In this document: positions 55,599 through 63,300 of the stretch, one piece after another
Numbering within the stretch: position 1 is the stretch's first letter
How the letters are laid out: the number at the start of each line of letters is the position of its first letter
Assembly: GCA_026026165.1 (NCBI GenBank)
Contig: JAPEUD010000002.1
Coordinates: forward strand, 62,001 to 126,000
From: Sarea resinae
Taxonomy: Eukaryota
Direction of reading: 5' to 3'
DNA length: 64,000 bases
Translations under genes and position numbers: made by a program
Notes under the pieces: generated by a model
The model's database searches: none
Seen by the model: only the letters and a program-made list of their open reading frames with translations
What the model was told of the DNA's origin: nothing

Positions 55599-56899
55599 CT
55601 AATCTAATTTAAGAGCCATGTCATCCCACCGTCCCCTGCGTAGCGGGTCCAACTTATGCAATTCGCGGAGGTAGATCTTGAGGGGATCCCCTTCCTCCCT
55701 CTCTCTATCAGTATCATCATCGCGCTTGCCTCCCTCCTCGGATGTTGCGTCACGAGCGATATGGCGTCGCAACAGCGTATAGCCCAGCAGTGCCTGGTAG
55801 AGCCATTTGCAGTCGTCTGCGTCTTCGAGCAGTTCTTTGATATTGGCTAGTTCGCGGTCGAGAATAACGAGGATCTCTGAAGGGGAGAGGTCAGGAACGA
55901 TTGCGGCGGCGTTGGGCGTCTTGGTCAAGGTGGGCGTGAGAGCAGAGATGAGGAAGTGGTGGTAGAACCAGAGTGATTGATCGTACGGGTCTGTATAGAG
56001 CGCGCGGAGGATGAGTGCGAATTCTAATTGGTTATCGATTAGCTTGATAAAAGGTAGAAGCGCAAAAAGATATTCTTAGGTACCAGAATCTAGAAACTCC
56101 CTCCGGGCCGCCGGCGTCGCATCCCGCTCATCCAGCAGTCTCGGGATGAGTTTTCCCCTGCGATGCCACGCTGAGAAATTCGACAGATTCGTCTGGATCA
56201 TCTTCGTCGTGTATTCGAATTCCGGCTCGGCCATGCTCTGGCCCTCGAGCTTTGGGCTCTCGAGCGCGGCAACGATGTAGCGTCTATAGTCCCAGCCGTG
56301 AAAATTGCGGCTGTCGAGCGCCAACATTTTGCCTACGAGTTTCATCTCGCCGAGGTGCAACTGGCGCGCGATCGGTGTCGGGAGGAAAGTGATCGAGGCT
56401 TGTAGAAGCCAAAGCCGGTGGTTCCAGATCCAGTAGCATTTTGGGAATTTGCGGAGGAGCGGGACGAGGAAGTAGAGGTCGGATGTGAGGAGCTTGTAGG
56501 TTGGGGAATCCTCAGGATCGGAGCCAGCTTCGGAATCGGCCAAGATCCTGGGAGACTGCGAGAATTGGTGCTGGAGGATTAGACGCCGGTGGTTCCAGAT
56601 GGTGTAGTACTCTGGGTTCTGGGTCAGGAGCTTGGAGGTTTGCGCGAGCACTTCGGCGGTGTATTCGCGCGCGCGGATCTGCTTATGATTAGTGCGAGTA
56701 GAACAGATCGAGCGATGAGGTCTTACATTAGACTCGACAAGTTCTACGAGTTCCTTATACTCGGTGATCTGTCGCTGTTCTTTCAGGGGACATTGCTGGG
56801 CCCGCTCTTCGGTCGAGGTGACGCGGGGCACCCCATGCTGTGAGCTGGTTTAGTGCACATTTCCCGGTATACGGCGACCAGGGAACCTACACTGGCCAT
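55599..56899 (-). CDS. BET4: Rab geranylgeranyltransferase (type II) alpha subunit, 4 exons
   Basis: MASHGVPR start and PPTA repeats NPEYYTIWNHRR, FPKCYWIWNHR, DSRNFHGWDYRR, NLSNFSAWHRR, DPYDQSLWFYH; introns 56890-56838, 56726-56679 and 56083-56024. Confidence 0.93.
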
Positions 56900-57790
56900 A
56901 GTTTGATGTAATTCGAGCAGATGCAAAAGTTGATCAAGAGGCACGGTGCCCAAGTGTGTGTCGCATCGCACCTTCCTAATGCGGTGATGTGTGATGATGG
57001 ATGTGACGATGAATTTGGGTGATGGCAGATGACGCAGGGTAAGCGCGAGCGGCAATGTTTACTTTCTCTACCCCTCCATCTATCAACAACCCCACCACCA
57101 CCACTCCATGCCGCGATGGGGGGCATCTCCCATCTCATCCAGCTCTTCTCTCATCGCATCTTTTCCCCATCACATCTCTTTATCACCACAATCATCACCA
57201 ACTCGTTCAACACCCATTACAATTCACTTCGTTTTCATCATGCATAAGTACTACAAATTTGACCCCTTGGTCACTCACTTGGATCTCTTCATCTTCATTC
57301 TCTTCCTCGGTATCCCCAAAAGGATGGCGAAGTGGTTTCTTTAGATACTGCACCGGTATAGCTTCAAAACAACACGCGTAACGCCTTGTTTACGCCTCGC
57401 ACAGGCCGTGCACCATCAGGATTATCACCAACTCCAGCAGAGATACGGATTTCATCTCATTCTTCTCTCCGACAGCTGCTCATTTCCTTCTTTGTGTGTC
57501 TCTACGTGTTTGCTGTGGGCCTACCACCGGTCGAACATATCTCATTACTGTTGTTGCGCGTTTGTGATCAACAAACAAGTTTTCGATCTCCTCCTATACC
57601 ACTCTTTCTTTCCAGGATAGAACCATAATCCCGGATCCAGCAGAGGACTCCTTTCGAGCACGTTCCTTCATCTCAGACAAGGAAATTACCCCAGACCACG
57701 CGGGTGATTCCCTATTTTTCACTTTCCTCCAAATTTCAGTTCATTTCTCTCATTCAGACTTCATTCCCGAAGATCCAGAAAAGCTTCAAA

Positions 57791-60223
57791 ATGGCGCTTG
57801 TTTCATCTCGGGAACTAGGACCGTTCAATGCCGCGGAATTCTATGACCTTGGGCTTTACAGCCCACCACCCTCTGCGACAAAGAAGCGCAGCTGGGGTCA
57901 TAATGGCTTGTTCGATATGAGTTGGCCTGCTCCTTCTGGCCTGCTCACCCCGCCACCTGAAGTAAGGATTGATACTCCAACTCCTCCGACAACTCCGTCC
58001 CTAGTGGGATTCCCATTTCCGGCTCAGTCCAGTCCTAAGAAAGCCAGAAAGAATGCTCTTTCTCTGAACGTCAACTTACGGTCTAAACTTCCATCCAGGT
58101 CAATTCGCTGTGGACTCTACACCGGATCAAGAGCACCAAAGCCTGCTCTCGACAGATTCATACCTTTGAGGCGTTCTCCTACCTCGTCGCTGGATAGTTT
58201 TCATCTGAGTAAGCCAACTGACCTTCTGTCCCATGACGAAAGAGTTCTTCGCCACCGTAGCGCCAGCCCGGACCCATTTAGTCCCATGACTCAGGACTTG
58301 CTTCGAGAAGCCGAGAGATTCTTACCCGGTCGTATCCGTCGGTCTGAATACAATCCTGGCCTCTCCGCAATGACAACAACTGGCGTTCTTGGCCTTCGTC
58401 GCTTTTCATCTTCTATCGGCAGTCGACATGGCAGCTTTAATGCTGCTCATATGGACGGCATTCTGACAGGGCCTTTACCAGGCATTACTGACGGCCGTGG
58501 TGGCATGATTGGTAGTGGCACCAATGCTCCATTGTACATCTCTCGATTTCTGGAAGGGCTCACGCCCAATGAAGACCTCGAGAAACATGAAAGGCGACTA
58601 GCTGTAGCTTTAGAAATTGGCCAAGCAGAGAGAGTCCTTCAGTTCAGCAGCCCGGAGAACAGGTGTGCCCCTAAAGTCTCTGGGAATCCTTCTCCGCTCA
58701 AGGAGATCAAGTGCCCCATGGATTTTCGTACCACTTGGAGGGACAATGAATGGGTCCGAGAAGGTGGCAATAGAGGTAAGCATGACAATCTCATGGGGTT
58801 TCTGCCACTATAAGCTAATACTTCACAGCTCCAAAGAAGCCGAAGAAGGATATGCAAAGAGCAGTGCCTGGCACTCCGTTCAGATAAGTCTCCATCCCAA
58901 ATTGTCTCGTTGTGTCTAACATCGTGCACAGTCCTTGACGCACCCCAGCTCCGTGATGATTTCTATTGCTCTCTCATTGCATATTCCATCACTTCGAAGG
59001 CTCTAGCTGTTGGACTCAACACTCGTGTCTACTTGTGGTCTGAAGTACATGGTGTGCAATATCCACCACACCATCTCTTCTTGGGGAGAACTGCATACGT
59101 TACTTCGCTGTCGTTCTCCTCAGATGACGGTGCCAACAGCATCCTTGCAATGGGTCGGGCTGATGGCCAGATATCTCTGTGGAGTCTGTACGAGCTAGAA
59201 GCACGGTTTGATATCCAACAAGCACACTCAATATCATGCATGGCTTTCAATCCCCGGAACAGGGGGCGCCCGTCACTGCGGGACACATCCACAAAGGTGT
59301 GCAACGAAGACCTCCTGGTGGGTGACGAAGTAGGCGATATCTACTACTACGCAGTCGAATGGCCTACAGAGGATCAACGCACTATCCTTGAATGGGATGG
59401 CGCTCTGAGTATGCTCTTCAAGATTTCCGTTCACACCCAGCAAATATGTGGGCTTACTTGGTCGCCCGACGGAAACTTCTTCGCCTCTGGAGGAAACGAC
59501 AATGTTTGCTGTCACTTTGACACGAGCGACATTGCTCCACTCCGAAGCTCTATGAACAGTGTCATTTCTGAAGAATCGGCACTCAGTGGAGATGGAGCTA
59601 CCCGCCCTCGTTTCATCATTCGCCAGTGTCCAGAAGTCCGCGAGGCAGTGCAGGAAAGTCATCGATGGTATCTGAGTGCAGCTGTCAAGGCACTTGCCTT
59701 CTGCCCTTGGCAAAGCGGTCTCATTGCTGTCGGTGGCGGATCCAACGATCGCTGTATCCACTTCTACCATACGATCTCGGGTGCTTGTTTAGCCACCATC
59801 AGCGTCGCGGCTCAAGTCACCTCATTGATTTGGTCAACCAGCAGACGGGAAATCGCAGCTACCTTTGGGTACGCCCAGCCAGATCATCCCTACCGCATAG
59901 CGGTGTTTTCTTGGCCTAGCTGTCAGCAAATTGTTGCCATCCCTTGGGCTGGTGAGATGCGAGCTCTTTATGCCATTCCTTACCCCGGCGGACCCAATCT
60001 TCCTGTTCGCGCTCAGAGACAGACTGAGGGCGGACAGTGGCTGACTCGTACTGCCGAAGAAGGTTGTATTGTTGTTGCCTCGAGCGACGAAAGCGTCAAG
60101 TTTCACGAAATTTGGAGTGAAGCTAAACAGGCGACTTATGAAACCTCGGGGCTTCTGGGTGGGAGCGACATTTTGGAAAGTTTGCACGGGATTGACAAGG
60201 ATGGCCTTGAGACCATCCGGTAG
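57791..60223 (+). CDS. AMA1: APC/C activator of the Cdc20/Fizzy family, Ama1-like, 3 exons
   Basis: C-box DRFIP, PFRVLDAPQLRDDFY, HTQQICGL, SGGNDN, AAVKALAFCPW, GGGSNDRCIHF, C-terminal IR tail. Intron 58776-58828 is GT-AG and intron 58884-58929 is AT-AC. The Ama1 assignment over Cdc20/Cdh1 rests on divergent WD40 inserts and is tentative. Confidence 0.85.
58884..58929 (+). other. Predicted non-canonical U2-type AT-AC intron (46 nt)
   Basis: ATAAGT donor, CTAAC branch at 58916-58920, GCAC end. Removal gives TTC AG|A GTC CTT GAC GCA CCC = F R V L D A P. Confidence 0.8.
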
Positions 60224-61199
60224 CCTTGTTCACTTTTGTTTTCTCTTTGTCTTTTCTTTGGCTAAATTGGGAACCTTTTCGTTTCTGGGCAACGTTTTTG
60301 GCTTGTCTTGCGCTCAGTGGCGCCACGGGACCTAGGCTGTCTCTTACAGATTGCTGTTCCTATTGCCGCTGAATGTTTGTTTCAATTCGCTTTGCAATTG
60401 CCTTTCTTTCTCTTTGTTCCTGCTCGCACTTCACCGCTCTGCGGAAGTGCTTGAGCCATTCCAGCGTTGTGCGGTGGAGTTACTTTCTTATTCCCGTGAA
60501 TGATGGTGTTAGACTCTTGTGGCATTCACCCTGTTATTCTTATTCACCTACTCTTCATCCTTCCTCTTCATCTTTCTCTTCCCTCTTCTACCTAAATCCT
60601 CTTCCTATGTTCTCCTACGACCTATTTCTTCTCTCTCCTCCGCACCTCTTACCTATTTCTTGTATTATTACCTAGTCCTCCGCTCTCCTATAGACTCACT
60701 TCCTCTAATACCTATAGTAATATACTCTTCAAATCATTTGGACTTCGATGGCCTCACGGAAAGAGTAAGATTCAACTCTTCCCGTGCTTAATCAGTATGA
60801 TCTTCTCGCAGTGGTTTGACTTCGTCACAGTCTGCCTCCCGCCAGATCTTATAGCAAACGCTGTCTGGAATAGACATACCTCGGCCGAGAAGCCATTTCA
60901 TGGAATAGCAGTCGTCTTGCCGAAAGCATGTTTCGAGAATGTCGAGAGATGAAAACTTAACAACAAAAAATATCCAGCACCGTTGGGGGAGGAAGTCACG
61001 TGCTGTGCTGGTCAGGCAGAATAATTTCGATTCAAGTATCATTTCCTACCACCAGAGGACCCTGATTGATGAGTTCAACATGTAACAGCCTCTCCACCTC
61101 CACCTCTGCTGGGACTAAGATATAGATTTCGCTCTTATAGACAAAAGTCGATATGTACAAATGAGATTACAGACAACTGACTACTAGTAAAGACTGAGA

Positions 61200-63300
61200 G
61201 CGTGATGAGCTTGTTTGAAAACTTGGAAAGAGCACTGACTATATTTTCCTAGCAACGAAGCTGATTCTTCCAACTTCACTCTCTACTCTAAAGACTGACT
61301 GACAAATATAAGGAGCGCTCTTCGGCGAATTGACAACAAGCGCCCGGGCGAAGACTGGAGAAGCATTGCAGAACTGAACGAACAAACACGAAGGACGATG
61401 CTAAAAAGACAAGAACAACTGCAACAGAGACGGAATGAGGGCATCATGGACCCAGAACAACAGGATGAGCAGCAAACGACTGACGAAGACTGGTGGACAG
61501 AAATGGCCAATTATCCAGGAGACTGGGCTGACGAACTCGACCACGATTACTGGGCAACAAGAGCGCGGACCCGCCTGCAAAAATTCAGAAACCGGACGGC
61601 TCCTGGGTCTACCTTAGTTTTCAGAACGTTATCATTTTGTGCGGCCAGGAAGGTATTGCAGGAGGTATCTCGTCCAGGGGAATTTCTATCAATGCTGCGG
61701 ATCTTCCGGCAAACCTATTCGGACAACATCTGCTACATGATTGTCGCTGAGACAAATCAGGCGCTAGACGTCGTCCTCCTCCAGCATGGCGCCCAGACGT
61801 GCAGCCAGAAGGGTCTTAGCAGAACGTTCTAGGCGTGCAGAGTCTGCTCATCGTTGCAGATCTCGCGTCGGCGTATGATGTCCAAGGGCATCGTCGGGAA
61901 TCCGACCGCGACCCCGTACGATCTGGACTCGTTGCGTTTGGCGAAAGCCAACGCCACTACTACCGAGCTGACTCTCAATAGTTTATTGCTATATACTGAA
62001 GATAATACAAACAATACGCTCAGCTATAATCTAGAAGAAGATAATGCTAATAAAGGCAATGCTAACAGTGACATTGCAGAAGAAGAAGATAAAACTGCTC
62101 GAAGACAATACTCTAGGTGACAATTCAGAAATACAACCCCCTTAAAGAGAATATTCTAAAGGACAATCCCCTAGATGACAAGCCCCTAGAGAACGAAGAT
62201 CTGGACAATACGCAGGAATGCACAATCGCCTTCAGACGACAAACCTCCAGACGACGAAACTCTAGGCGACGAACCTCTAGACGACGAACCTCTAGATGAT
62301 GATCCTCCACATGATGATCTTCTAAATGATGCCGATGACACCCAAGAGAGAACCAATTAATCATGTGCGAAATATGCACATAGAGAAGACAGTCCCAGGA
62401 CAAAGCGCGGATTTGGCCACTAGGGCCACTAGTGAAGTGGCCCAAGTCGACCACGATACTGGAGTGGTGGCGAAGCGGCATGGAGGGACGATCATTCTCA
62501 TTTCAACAGATAAGGTAGAAGGGCGTTATCACTATCGCAGCATCCCAAATTTCGGCGAAACTTCACCGTGATAGGCTGGCTCCTTTTAATGATCATCAAA
62601 ATAGCCATGAAGCTACTGTCATTAACAAACAAGGAAGCCGAACGAGTCAATTATCATCGAAAAAACCAAAAGAGCACGACACGTTGTCTAATACAGCTAA
62701 CTTGGAGCGAGATACTAAAATTGATGCAGATTCTAAGGCAGAGGTAGTGCTGATATCTAACAAATCAGATTCTAATAGAGTAGATACTAAGTAGGGCTTT
62801 GTGTAGGAAGTAGATCGTACTACTAGCTTAGCTTCTCTAACTAGTATTGCTAACGCGCAGGAAGTAATGCTAGCCTGGACTAATTTCAAAAGTAAAGCGA
62901 AGTCCCAGAAGCCTTCCTTCAAGACCATCTACTGCCAAGTTCGGAATGTGGCCCTAACGCTTCAGACGAAGAGTGAGCGCCTTGCTGTTATAAATTGACA
63001 GAAGTCTGCATATTGTTTGCAAAGTACGCGCCTACCACGAAGCTCCCAGAGTCTACGGAAAAGAGATGCGAGGAGACGAAGACAGACCATGTGCGGGATA
63101 TTGAAGCCCTTGAAGTCGCCCGAGCTAAGGAGCTTCAGGGAATGCGGGCGAGCCATGCGTGAGGAAATGCAAGCTTTCGAAGCAACCAGGTCAAGGAATG
63201 CGAGACGACTCACATAAAGCATCTACAAGGGCATAGGGAAGAGCATGCAGAGACCGTGAAAAGCATGTTGACTAAGGCAAGACAAAAGGAAGAAGCTCCC
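61200..63300 (+). pseudogene. Eroded ORF of unknown origin (RIP-like decay) with 15-nt DDEPL-type tandem repeats
   Basis: ORFs 61398-61832 and 61854-62120 are in the same frame and are separated by a single TAG. Acidic coding-like repeats occur at 62140-62330. TpA-rich patches occur at 61975-62180 and 62720-62900. Confidence 0.45.

Follow-up and report, generated by a model that had tools for sequence, protein, structure and literature searches.

A conserved and probably U2-type AT-AC intron in the AMA1-like APC/C co-activator gene of Sarea resinae

The DNA considered here, henceforth ‘the window’, is a 64,000-nt stretch from the fungus Sarea resinae, i.e., positions 62,001 to 126,000 of the forward strand of contig JAPEUD010000002.1 (GenBank assembly GCA_026026165.1). 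At 57791-60223 of its + strand (coordinates throughout being those of the window) lies a predicted three-exon gene for an AMA1-like co-activator for the anaphase-promoting complex, or cyclosome (APC/C). The exons of this gene, as joined by script on the window, form a single frame of 2334 nt, that is, 777 aa with one terminal stop (Table 1). A preliminary description of the sequence had taken 58884-58929 to be a 46-nt AT...AC intron whose removal rebuilds the family motif around PFRVLDAP, and this holds, given the letters themselves, the in-frame 777-aa join, and 35 orthologous loci. The element very probably is a genuine as well as ancient spliceosomal AT-AC intron, most likely U2-dependent, which splits an arginine codon between PF and VLDAP.

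Table 1. Features of the AMA1-like gene and of its putative AT-AC intron (window coordinates).
Feature	Position	Strand	Remarks
Exon 1	57791..58775	+	from ATG, ends in phase 1; C-box DRFIP at residue 121; N-terminus identical to that of deposited protein P0001
Intron 1	58776..58828	+	53 nt, canonical GTAAGC...CTAAT...CACAG, phase 1
Exon 2	58829..58883	+	55-nt micro-exon; codes (A)PKKPKKDMQRAVPGTPF, followed by AG, bases one and two of an R codon; ends CCG TTC AG
Intron 2	58884..58929	+	46 nt, AT...AC, phase 2; ATAAGT...CTAAC-ATCGTGCAC, last bases GTGCAC
5' splice site ATAAGT	58884..58889	+	U2-type consensus except at +1
Putative branch site CTAAC	58916..58920	+	predicted branch A at 58919, followed by 10 nt up to the intron 3' end
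3' splice site CAC	58927..58929	+	YAC instead of YAG
AG 2 nt past the AC terminus	58930..58931	+	acceptor for the exon-skipping model on deposit, in which an in-frame intron of 156 nt runs from GT 58776 to AG 58931
Exon 3	58930..60223	+	third base of the R codon, then VLDAPQLRDDFY..., the entire CDC20/Fizzy WD40 propeller, and IR tail; TAG stop at 60221-60223

Exon 3 opens with the letters A GTC CTT GAC GCA CCC, from 58930, and exact excision of intron 2 yields ...RAVPGTPFR/VLDAPQLRDDFY... (here and below a slash marks the junction), with the family motif VP..PF[RK]VLDAP thereby restored. Starting with the second residue of the exon-3 translation there is a match to the CDC20/Fizzy WD40 family PF24807 (E 6e-62, 210 bits, the cut-off being 200). 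Co-activators of the APC/C are recognizable as well by a C-box, DR[FY]IPxR, and by a terminal IR tail, and both are seen here, the former as DRFIP and the latter as a protein end reading ...TIR. With the Botrytis orthologue as query, sequence matches within the PDB are to Slp1, Cdc20, and Cdh1. The gene may be described, as it was previously, as that of a predicted Ama1-like APC/C activator, with the AMA1 portion of this assignment based on names which sources give to its relatives (Bcama1, ‘meiosis-specific APC/C activator protein AMA1’). The protein that has been deposited, P0001, from an S. resinae metagenome-assembled genome, is 758 aa long and joins 58775 to 58932, with exon 2 skipped.

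As 58884 and 58930 are both A, intron 2 can equally be written one base rightward, as TA...CA, with AT...AC being the sole register that fits known splice rules. Retention of the intron would result in ...PFR followed by a stop, and joining of donor 58884 to the AG found at 58930-58931 would result in AGT CCT TGA; both of these consequences had been pointed out previously, and both were reproduced on the letters of the window. The donor had been viewed in addition as U2-like rather than U12-like. A motif search of window intron 2 in fact returned neither ATATCC nor a TCCTTAAC-like box; that is, the U12-type combination of a 5' site ATATCCTT (or GTATCCTT) with the branch box TCCTTAAC near the 3' end is absent from this intron, and ATATCC was found in 0 of 26 distinct orthologous AT-AC introns. 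A branch spacing of 10 nt is present also in intron 1 of the same gene as well as in GT-AG orthologous introns and is thus not a U12 hallmark.

It had also been argued that a single sequencing error would not explain both ends, and that argument stands. From run X1, a Logan contig with a word depth of 358 is identical to the window over 58500-59300, i.e., with 0 differences, which rules out an assembly slip, if not strain-specific variation. Run X1, however, possibly represents the source sample of the window. A look-up of RNA runs containing 57700-60300 listed none. Over this interval runs X1 through X4 supplied contigs of the DNA type only, displaying no splice joints and having no bearing on expression; coverage by X2 is of 58685-58835 only, with none from X3 or X4.

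Orthologous positions were surveyed by scanning metagenome contigs using an alignment of the WD40 exon, which supplied 80 loci. Two of these (L060, L078) are without an exon-3 start, and the sequences assessed consequently are 78 loci plus the window. The site in each was located by the V codon of VLDAP along with the PF[RK] codons upstream. AT-AC ends were seen in 36 of the 79 (35 loci and the window), GT-AG ends in 22 of 79, and no intron in 15 of 79. Two sequences are AT-AG (L014, L021), two are AT-AA (L015, L016, which share one sequence), one is cut upstream while ending in AC (L018), and one is uninformative (L064). The combination GT-AC was seen in 0 of the 79 assessed sequences. Inspecting the termini of this intron in AMA1 orthologues had been suggested in the preliminary description, and the outcome, i.e., AT...AC ends recurring at an identical codon position in 35 of 78 orthologue loci, with GT-AG in 22 and GT-AC in 0, is more than chance would supply.

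Many of these loci are near-duplicates of one another. The distinct intron sequences number 26 for AT-AC, 19 for GT-AG, two for AT-AG, and one for AT-AA. The 26 AT-AC introns are 46-53 nt in length and begin with the hexamers ATATGT (12), ATAAGT (5), ATACGT (4), ATGAGT (3), or ATAGGT (2), that is, with the usual fungal GT hexamers except that A is found at +1. All 26 possess G at +5 and T at +6, versus 17 and 16, respectively, of the 19 in the GT-AG class, with exceptions among the latter including L017 (GTAAAA) and L022 (GTAAAC), both of which adjoin AT-AG/AT-AA loci on the tree considered below. A YTRAY motif is found in 25 of the 26, and for 23 of these its A is located 10-11 nt before the end of the intron; the 3' trimers are CAC (18), TAC (7), or AAC (1).

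Removal of the AT-AC intron results in [VL]P..PF[RK]VL[DE]AP for 26 of the 26 distinct sequences, and intronless loci encode this same peptide contiguously. The portion of the peptide encoded by exon 2, [RK]x[VL]PxxPF[RK], is a motif that is kept in orthologues and which, as represented by the Botrytis orthologue, aligns with RYIPSLPDR of human Cdc20; the full peptide of this orthologue aligns there with RYIPSLPDRILDAP. Across the four codons examined at the exon-2 end, the 26 sequences encode P in 26 cases (and do so via all four of its codons), F in 26, V in 23, and P in 24, with 694 synonymous versus 117 non-synonymous codon-pair differences, these pairs not being independent of one another. 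Synonymous drift in combination with fixed amino acids is a pattern unexpected for an exon that is never translated, and reflects purifying selection acting on exon-2 codons in AT-AC genes. As for the other side of exon 2, a canonical intron 1 can be written for 22 of 24 assessable AT-AC loci (L024 and L069 fail; L023 and L043 are too short), although the control used was very permissive, accepting any GT/GC...AG with a branch motif, and establishes no more than that intron 1 could be canonical. Several loci nevertheless have clear GTGAGT or GTAAGT intron-1 donors that yield a 55-nt exon 2.

The phylogenetic spread of these states was assessed using a quick maximum-likelihood tree, unrooted, with 76 rows, i.e., one for each distinct locus whose exon-3 open reading frame (ORF) reaches 300 aa or more, together with 20 named proteins; L032, L041, L043, L051, and L072, having shorter ORFs, are omitted. 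The polarity of AT-AC, which is inferred, is relative to a sample from which Eurotiomycetes, Pezizomycetes, and Orbiliomycetes are absent. AT-AC loci are found in clades with Xylographa, Seirophora, and Pycnora (Lecanoromycetes), with Zopfia, Saccharata, and Venturia (Dothideomycetes), and with Botrytis, Oidiodendron, and Pseudogymnoascus (Leotiomycetes), with the window sequence forming a long branch near Xylona. GT-AG ends are seen instead in 14 of 14 rows of a Staphylotrichum/Remersonia/Coniochaeta clade, relatives of which are Sordariales and which Xylaria and Paramyrothecium adjoin. The Leotiomycete-like clade is mixed, containing AT-AC (L024, L028, L018), AT-AG, AT-AA, GT-AG (L017, L022, L026), and no intron (L027, L029, L074).

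By parsimony there are four changes of terminal state among intron-bearing rows along with six changes in intron presence or absence. With so few independent changes, the 36-versus-22 split reflects inheritance rather than repeated independent co-variation. What the data do show is a single old AT-AC state, retained as the sequence between the intron ends was completely replaced, along with a few conversions and no case of GT-AC. Most simply read, AT-AC would be older than the split of the Lecanoromycete-, Dothideomycete-, and Leotiomycete-like classes, a split dating to hundreds of millions of years ago. GT-AG then would have replaced AT-AC among the Sordariomycete-like loci, as well as in some few lineages that are Helotiales-like, with the intron probably lost several times as well.

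Indirect evidence of splicing comes from relatives. For Botrytis cinerea, the read-through models P0062, P0064, and P0140 imply a 47-nt intron that starts ATH and ends AC, and Bcama1 of strain B05.10 (P0065) reads PFK/VLDAP, with this exact 792-aa sequence found also from Logan contigs. For Oidiodendron maius, the Logan ORF P0123, with 819 aa and a longest contig of 4757 nt, is the same as the annotated P0121 except for two gaps, one of which, 19 aa in length, spans the exon-2 equivalent and VLD; the locus nearest to O. maius, L024, is AT-AC (support 100). Because other Logan proteins (e.g., P0002, P0005) read through introns, Logan calls were taken to be plain ORFs, and the full-length Botrytis and O. 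maius sequences thus presumably to be spliced transcripts. The second gap in P0121 is a separate matter: This is a 23-aa stretch (VSGTNAPLYT..., residues 291-313 of P0123) that is conserved in the family, the window having GSGTNAPLYISRF, and its lack in P0121 likely represents a second mis-predicted intron in the O. maius model.

How might such an intron be spliced? U1 and then U6 would recognize an otherwise perfect 5' site, (A)TAAGT, a reading that would explain the invariance of G at +5 and T at +6. U2 would pair with CTAAC, 10 nt from the intron 3' end. Upon exon ligation, the non-Watson-Crick contact that forms between first and last intron bases would then be made by A(+1) and C(-1) in place of G and G. 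Parker & Siliciano 1993 as well as later structures are said to supply the basis for this replacement of G-G by A-C at exon ligation. That A...C can replace G...G termini is reported also in PMC5029451 and PMC11585973.

Certain observations weigh against an intron with AT-AC ends that is spliced in this manner. AT-AG (L014, L021) and AT-AA (L015, L016) ends exist in apparently intact genes, and a strict rule of A-C pairing does not predict such hybrids, i.e., these loci are left unexplained by the first-base/last-base rule. Only two to three phylogenetically independent pairs differ at the 5' base, for which a sign test gives p = 1. The junction in the window is inferred from sequence, and the in-frame, canonical skip of exon 2 (GT 58776...AG 58931) could co-exist as an isoform. 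The transcript evidence from Botrytis and Oidiodendron, in turn, hinges on inferring that Logan proteins are plain ORF calls.

The hybrid ends of L014, L021, L015, and L016 all are found in a Helotiales-like subclade which also holds Stipitochalara, with exon-3 ORFs that are intact at 427 aa, and the GT-AG sisters of these loci, L017 and L022, are without G at +5 and T at +6. The pairs L014/L021, L015/L016, and L017/L022 may be viewed as intermediates in the conversion of AT-AC to GT-AG. Editing, from adenosine to inosine (A-to-I), of the first intron base of L014 and L021, i.e., such that AT-AG becomes IT-AG, was considered as well, but the base preceding is A rather than the U that is described as preferred (PMC11156358), and Botrytis apothecia are reported to have yielded no such editing; this idea is left as speculation.

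AT-AC introns of the U2 type are not new. They are described (as ‘type II’) for the animal genes SCN4A and SCN5A (PMC1557818), and ATAAGT is given as the consensus of metazoan U2-type AT-AC introns (PMC5029451). The window intron shares with the SCN4A/SCN5A type its AT...AC ends, a 5' site of the major type except at +1 (in the window exactly ATAAGT), a lack of U12 boxes, and a conservation of termini over long evolutionary distances. It differs in that it is fungal, only 46 nt in length, located in an APC/C co-activator gene, and predicted from sequence, and in that its orthologues display AT-AC, AT-AG, AT-AA, and GT-AG ends as well as loss. In Saccharomyces cerevisiae, an AT-AC actin intron has been engineered (Parker & Siliciano 1993, as cited in later work) and a nested AT-AC intron is described for RPL30 (PMC5029451, which is Gould et al. 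2016; PMC11585973). The rationale for A...C ends is shared with these, and the yeast cases are reported to involve splicing by the major spliceosome in an ascomycete that is without a minor one. The RPL30 AT-AC splicing, however, is reported to yield a by-product (1-2%) and to use a 5' site that is atypical, whereas the window intron has a consensus 5' site and would be the only route to the conserved protein.

The window intron would therefore seem to belong to a known though very rare kind, U2-type AT-AC. A survey of five species is reported as having found 24 U2-type AT-AC introns, none of them fungal, with fungal xylanase introns only hypothesized to be such (PMC1557818), and AT-AC is described as rare in fungal annotations (PMC7072748). 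Literature searches, which did not reach papers available by subscription, found no published description of an AT-AC intron in AMA1. What is unusual here is the depth of conservation, the natural series of terminal variants, the systematic errors of annotation, and a location within a gene for which post-transcriptional control has a history.

That history gives rise to a more ambitious interpretation, added on to that of a genuine AT-AC intron, in which the AT-AC ends would have been selected for inefficient or stage-dependent splicing, with full-length Ama1 made in sexual development only. This is possible but doubtful. In yeast, the AMA1 intron is dependent on Mer1, and the Mer1 enhancer, which is AYACCCUY, has 0 matches on the + strand of 57700-60300. 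Specifically, yeast AMA1 (SPO70) is reported to harbor one of four Mer1-dependent introns (PMC11585973). The gene family is the same, and in yeast too it is a suboptimal intron that controls production of the activator, but that intron is GU...AG, with a non-consensus 5' site and a need for the Mer1 enhancer (PMC11585973). In Fusarium graminearum, FgAMA1 (PSC33) is reported to require sexual-stage A-to-I editing of UAG to UGG (PMC10776026, PMC11156358). This is the same orthologue group, and again a genomic ‘defect’ is resolved by RNA processing. The editing, however, is of a base within a stop codon and is stage-specific by experiment, versus, in the window, a predicted splicing event. The authors of PMC10776026 contrast yeast Mer1 and Fusarium editing as independent solutions to a trade-off between survival and reproduction. 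The preliminary description had relied on memory for FgAMA1 editing (PMC10776026, PMC11156358), for yeast AMA1 as a Mer1 target (PMC11585973), and for the substitution of A...C for G...G (PMC5029451, PMC11585973), and what these sources report agrees with all three.

Premature stops are present among the surveyed loci too. In-frame TAG codons are found at conserved W positions (EWPxxW; ACLSW[KR]P) in L032:1651+ (aa 149 of the exon-3 frame), in L041/L072 (aa 149), and in L051 (aa 117), i.e., at two different sites, beyond which homology carries on in the same frame as far as the usual IR terminus; L032 shares 78% identity with a protein of Xylaria digitata. Each looks like the editing-dependent premature stop of FgAMA1, and the AMA1 family seems prone to post-transcriptional locks, with AT-AC introns and TAG stops in different classes.

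With regard to selection of AT-AC ends as a form of control, these three distinct Sordariomycete-like genes with TAG at a conserved W would be in its favor, as would be the finding of GT-AG in 14 of 14 Sordariomycete-like rows with AT-AC in other classes, the existence of post-transcriptional restriction of AMA1 in yeast and F. graminearum, and a report that genome-wide editing was not found in Botrytis apothecia (PMC11156358). This complementary distribution of AT-AC and editing represents, however, approximately one phylogenetic contrast. AT-AC can persist, furthermore, simply because conversion to GT-AG takes two changes, and an intron that has been lost approximately six times and converted approximately three times argues against a strong need for it. 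The putative spliced contigs of O. maius, for which Logan ORFs read through exons 1-2-3, also count, though weakly, against a strict lock. O. maius has no known sexual stage, and this counts against such control as well. Were the control real, then AMA1 would have evolved post-transcriptional locks three times independently, the other two being Mer1-dependent splicing in budding yeast and editing-dependent TAG(W) stops in Sordariomycetes, which is to be viewed as improbable to about the same degree. Its distribution would be complementary to that of editing, with AT-AC present where editing across the genome was not found, and GT-AG together with TAG stops present where there is editing, and the Helotiales-like AT-AG and AT-AA variants would be further-weakened or relaxed versions of it. 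Not quite apt is the earlier term ‘independent’ for the supposed lock, which would not be peculiar to this species, as the AT-AC state is inherited and common to many Pezizomycotina. Less likely than selected control is that the intron is a U12-type fossil, one that took on major-type signals as the minor spliceosome disappeared from Dikarya.

A quite unlikely alternative to an AT-AC intron is that the deposited model is correct, i.e., that exon 2 is skipped by means of a single canonical intron of 156 nt, giving ...GGNR/VLDAP... and 758 aa. This skip is in frame, its ends are canonical, and the same type of model, GGPEQ/ILDAP, is found, of 15 listed members of the cluster, for 10 that are from Sclerotiniaceae, as well as for other species. 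Being in frame, though, is automatic given an intron 1 of phase 1, an intron 2 of phase 2, and an AG that is 2 nt past the AC. As a consequence, predictors yield models which are tidy but wrong, here and in Sclerotiniaceae. Exon 2, moreover, encodes a family-conserved motif, displaying synonymous-only drift in AT-AC genes, that intronless orthologues encode contiguously, and L018, L024, and L059, which read AC/GG, are without the AG just downstream that would be needed as the skipping acceptor. Gene predictors presumably accept canonical sites only, and this would be so for those used on the source records. The 758-aa model is very probably a mistake of annotation, imposed by a predictor limited to GT-AG, with the correct product being 777 aa. 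Nor is it isolated: The exon is skipped or garbled in predicted proteins of Sarea, Xylographa, Rhynchosporium, Diplocarpon, and Hymenoscyphus. Among 247 fetched homologues, 53 have T (ACN) directly before VLDAP, which would be the signature of reading through an AC terminus, and 68 have a contiguous PF[RK].

Use of some other local junction, such as one linking the AG at 58931 to a donor that is either GC (58871) or GA (58883), is highly improbable. The window does contain three in-frame canonical alternatives, their donors being offset from the AT by -23, -20, and -13, but every one of these deletes PFR or PFRVLDAPQ. Over the range searched (in-frame GT/GC...AG, donor -36 to +12, acceptor -12 to +36), 10 of the 26 AT-AC introns have no such alternative at all, and for the other 16, the window included, the motif is lost or changed by the alternatives, which are not common between loci.

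Sequencing or assembly error, or else a decaying pseudogene, would be conceivable in that the source record is a metagenome-assembled genome, but is scarcely credible given the identical depth-358 contig, the need for two coordinated ‘errors’, the same state in 35 other loci, and three exons that all are open and conserved. A U12-type intron, i.e., one removed by a minor spliceosome, is likewise very unlikely: AT-AC termini, a branch site approximately 10 nt from the 3' end, and AT-AG and AT-AA variants in relatives (3' variants which exist among U12-type introns) are all in keeping with one, but the U12 boxes are lacking and the branch spacing is that of intron 1 and of the GT-AG class.

As to the surroundings of the gene, its flanks at 57060-57790 and 60230-60720 contain long, pyrimidine-rich tracts of low complexity (CT-rich runs). 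The upstream neighbor is a minus-strand ORF at 56076-56849 with repeats reading ...PEYYTIWNHRRL... and ...KCYWIWNHRLW..., which we take to resemble those of a protein prenyltransferase/Rab geranylgeranyltransferase alpha subunit. An AMA1 match from Chaenotheca, P0019, is labeled ‘Rab geranylgeranyltransferase’, suggesting a fused or mislabeled model of this same gene pair.

For annotation, the consequence is that many fungal models of this sporulation regulator omit or garble a conserved exon of 55 nt, since predictors refuse AT-AC. Affected are models from Sarea, most Botrytis, Sclerotinia, Monilinia, Oidiodendron, Rhynchosporium, and Xylographa, and the rule for repair is to seek ATRNGT...YAC between PF and [RK]VLDAP. 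With regard to splicing, there exists at one orthologous intron a natural series of AT-AC, AT-AG, AT-AA, and GT-AG ends, in organisms that are reported to be without minor introns and without most or all minor small nuclear RNAs. Positions +5 and +6 do not vary in this series wherever A occupies +1, and are relaxed in two lineages that have converted (L017, GTAAAA; L022, GTAAAC), and the series thus can serve as a test bed for the first-base/last-base rule and for the conversion of AT-AC introns. With regard to regulation, AMA1 already has two unrelated post-transcriptional locks, to which this intron might add a third.

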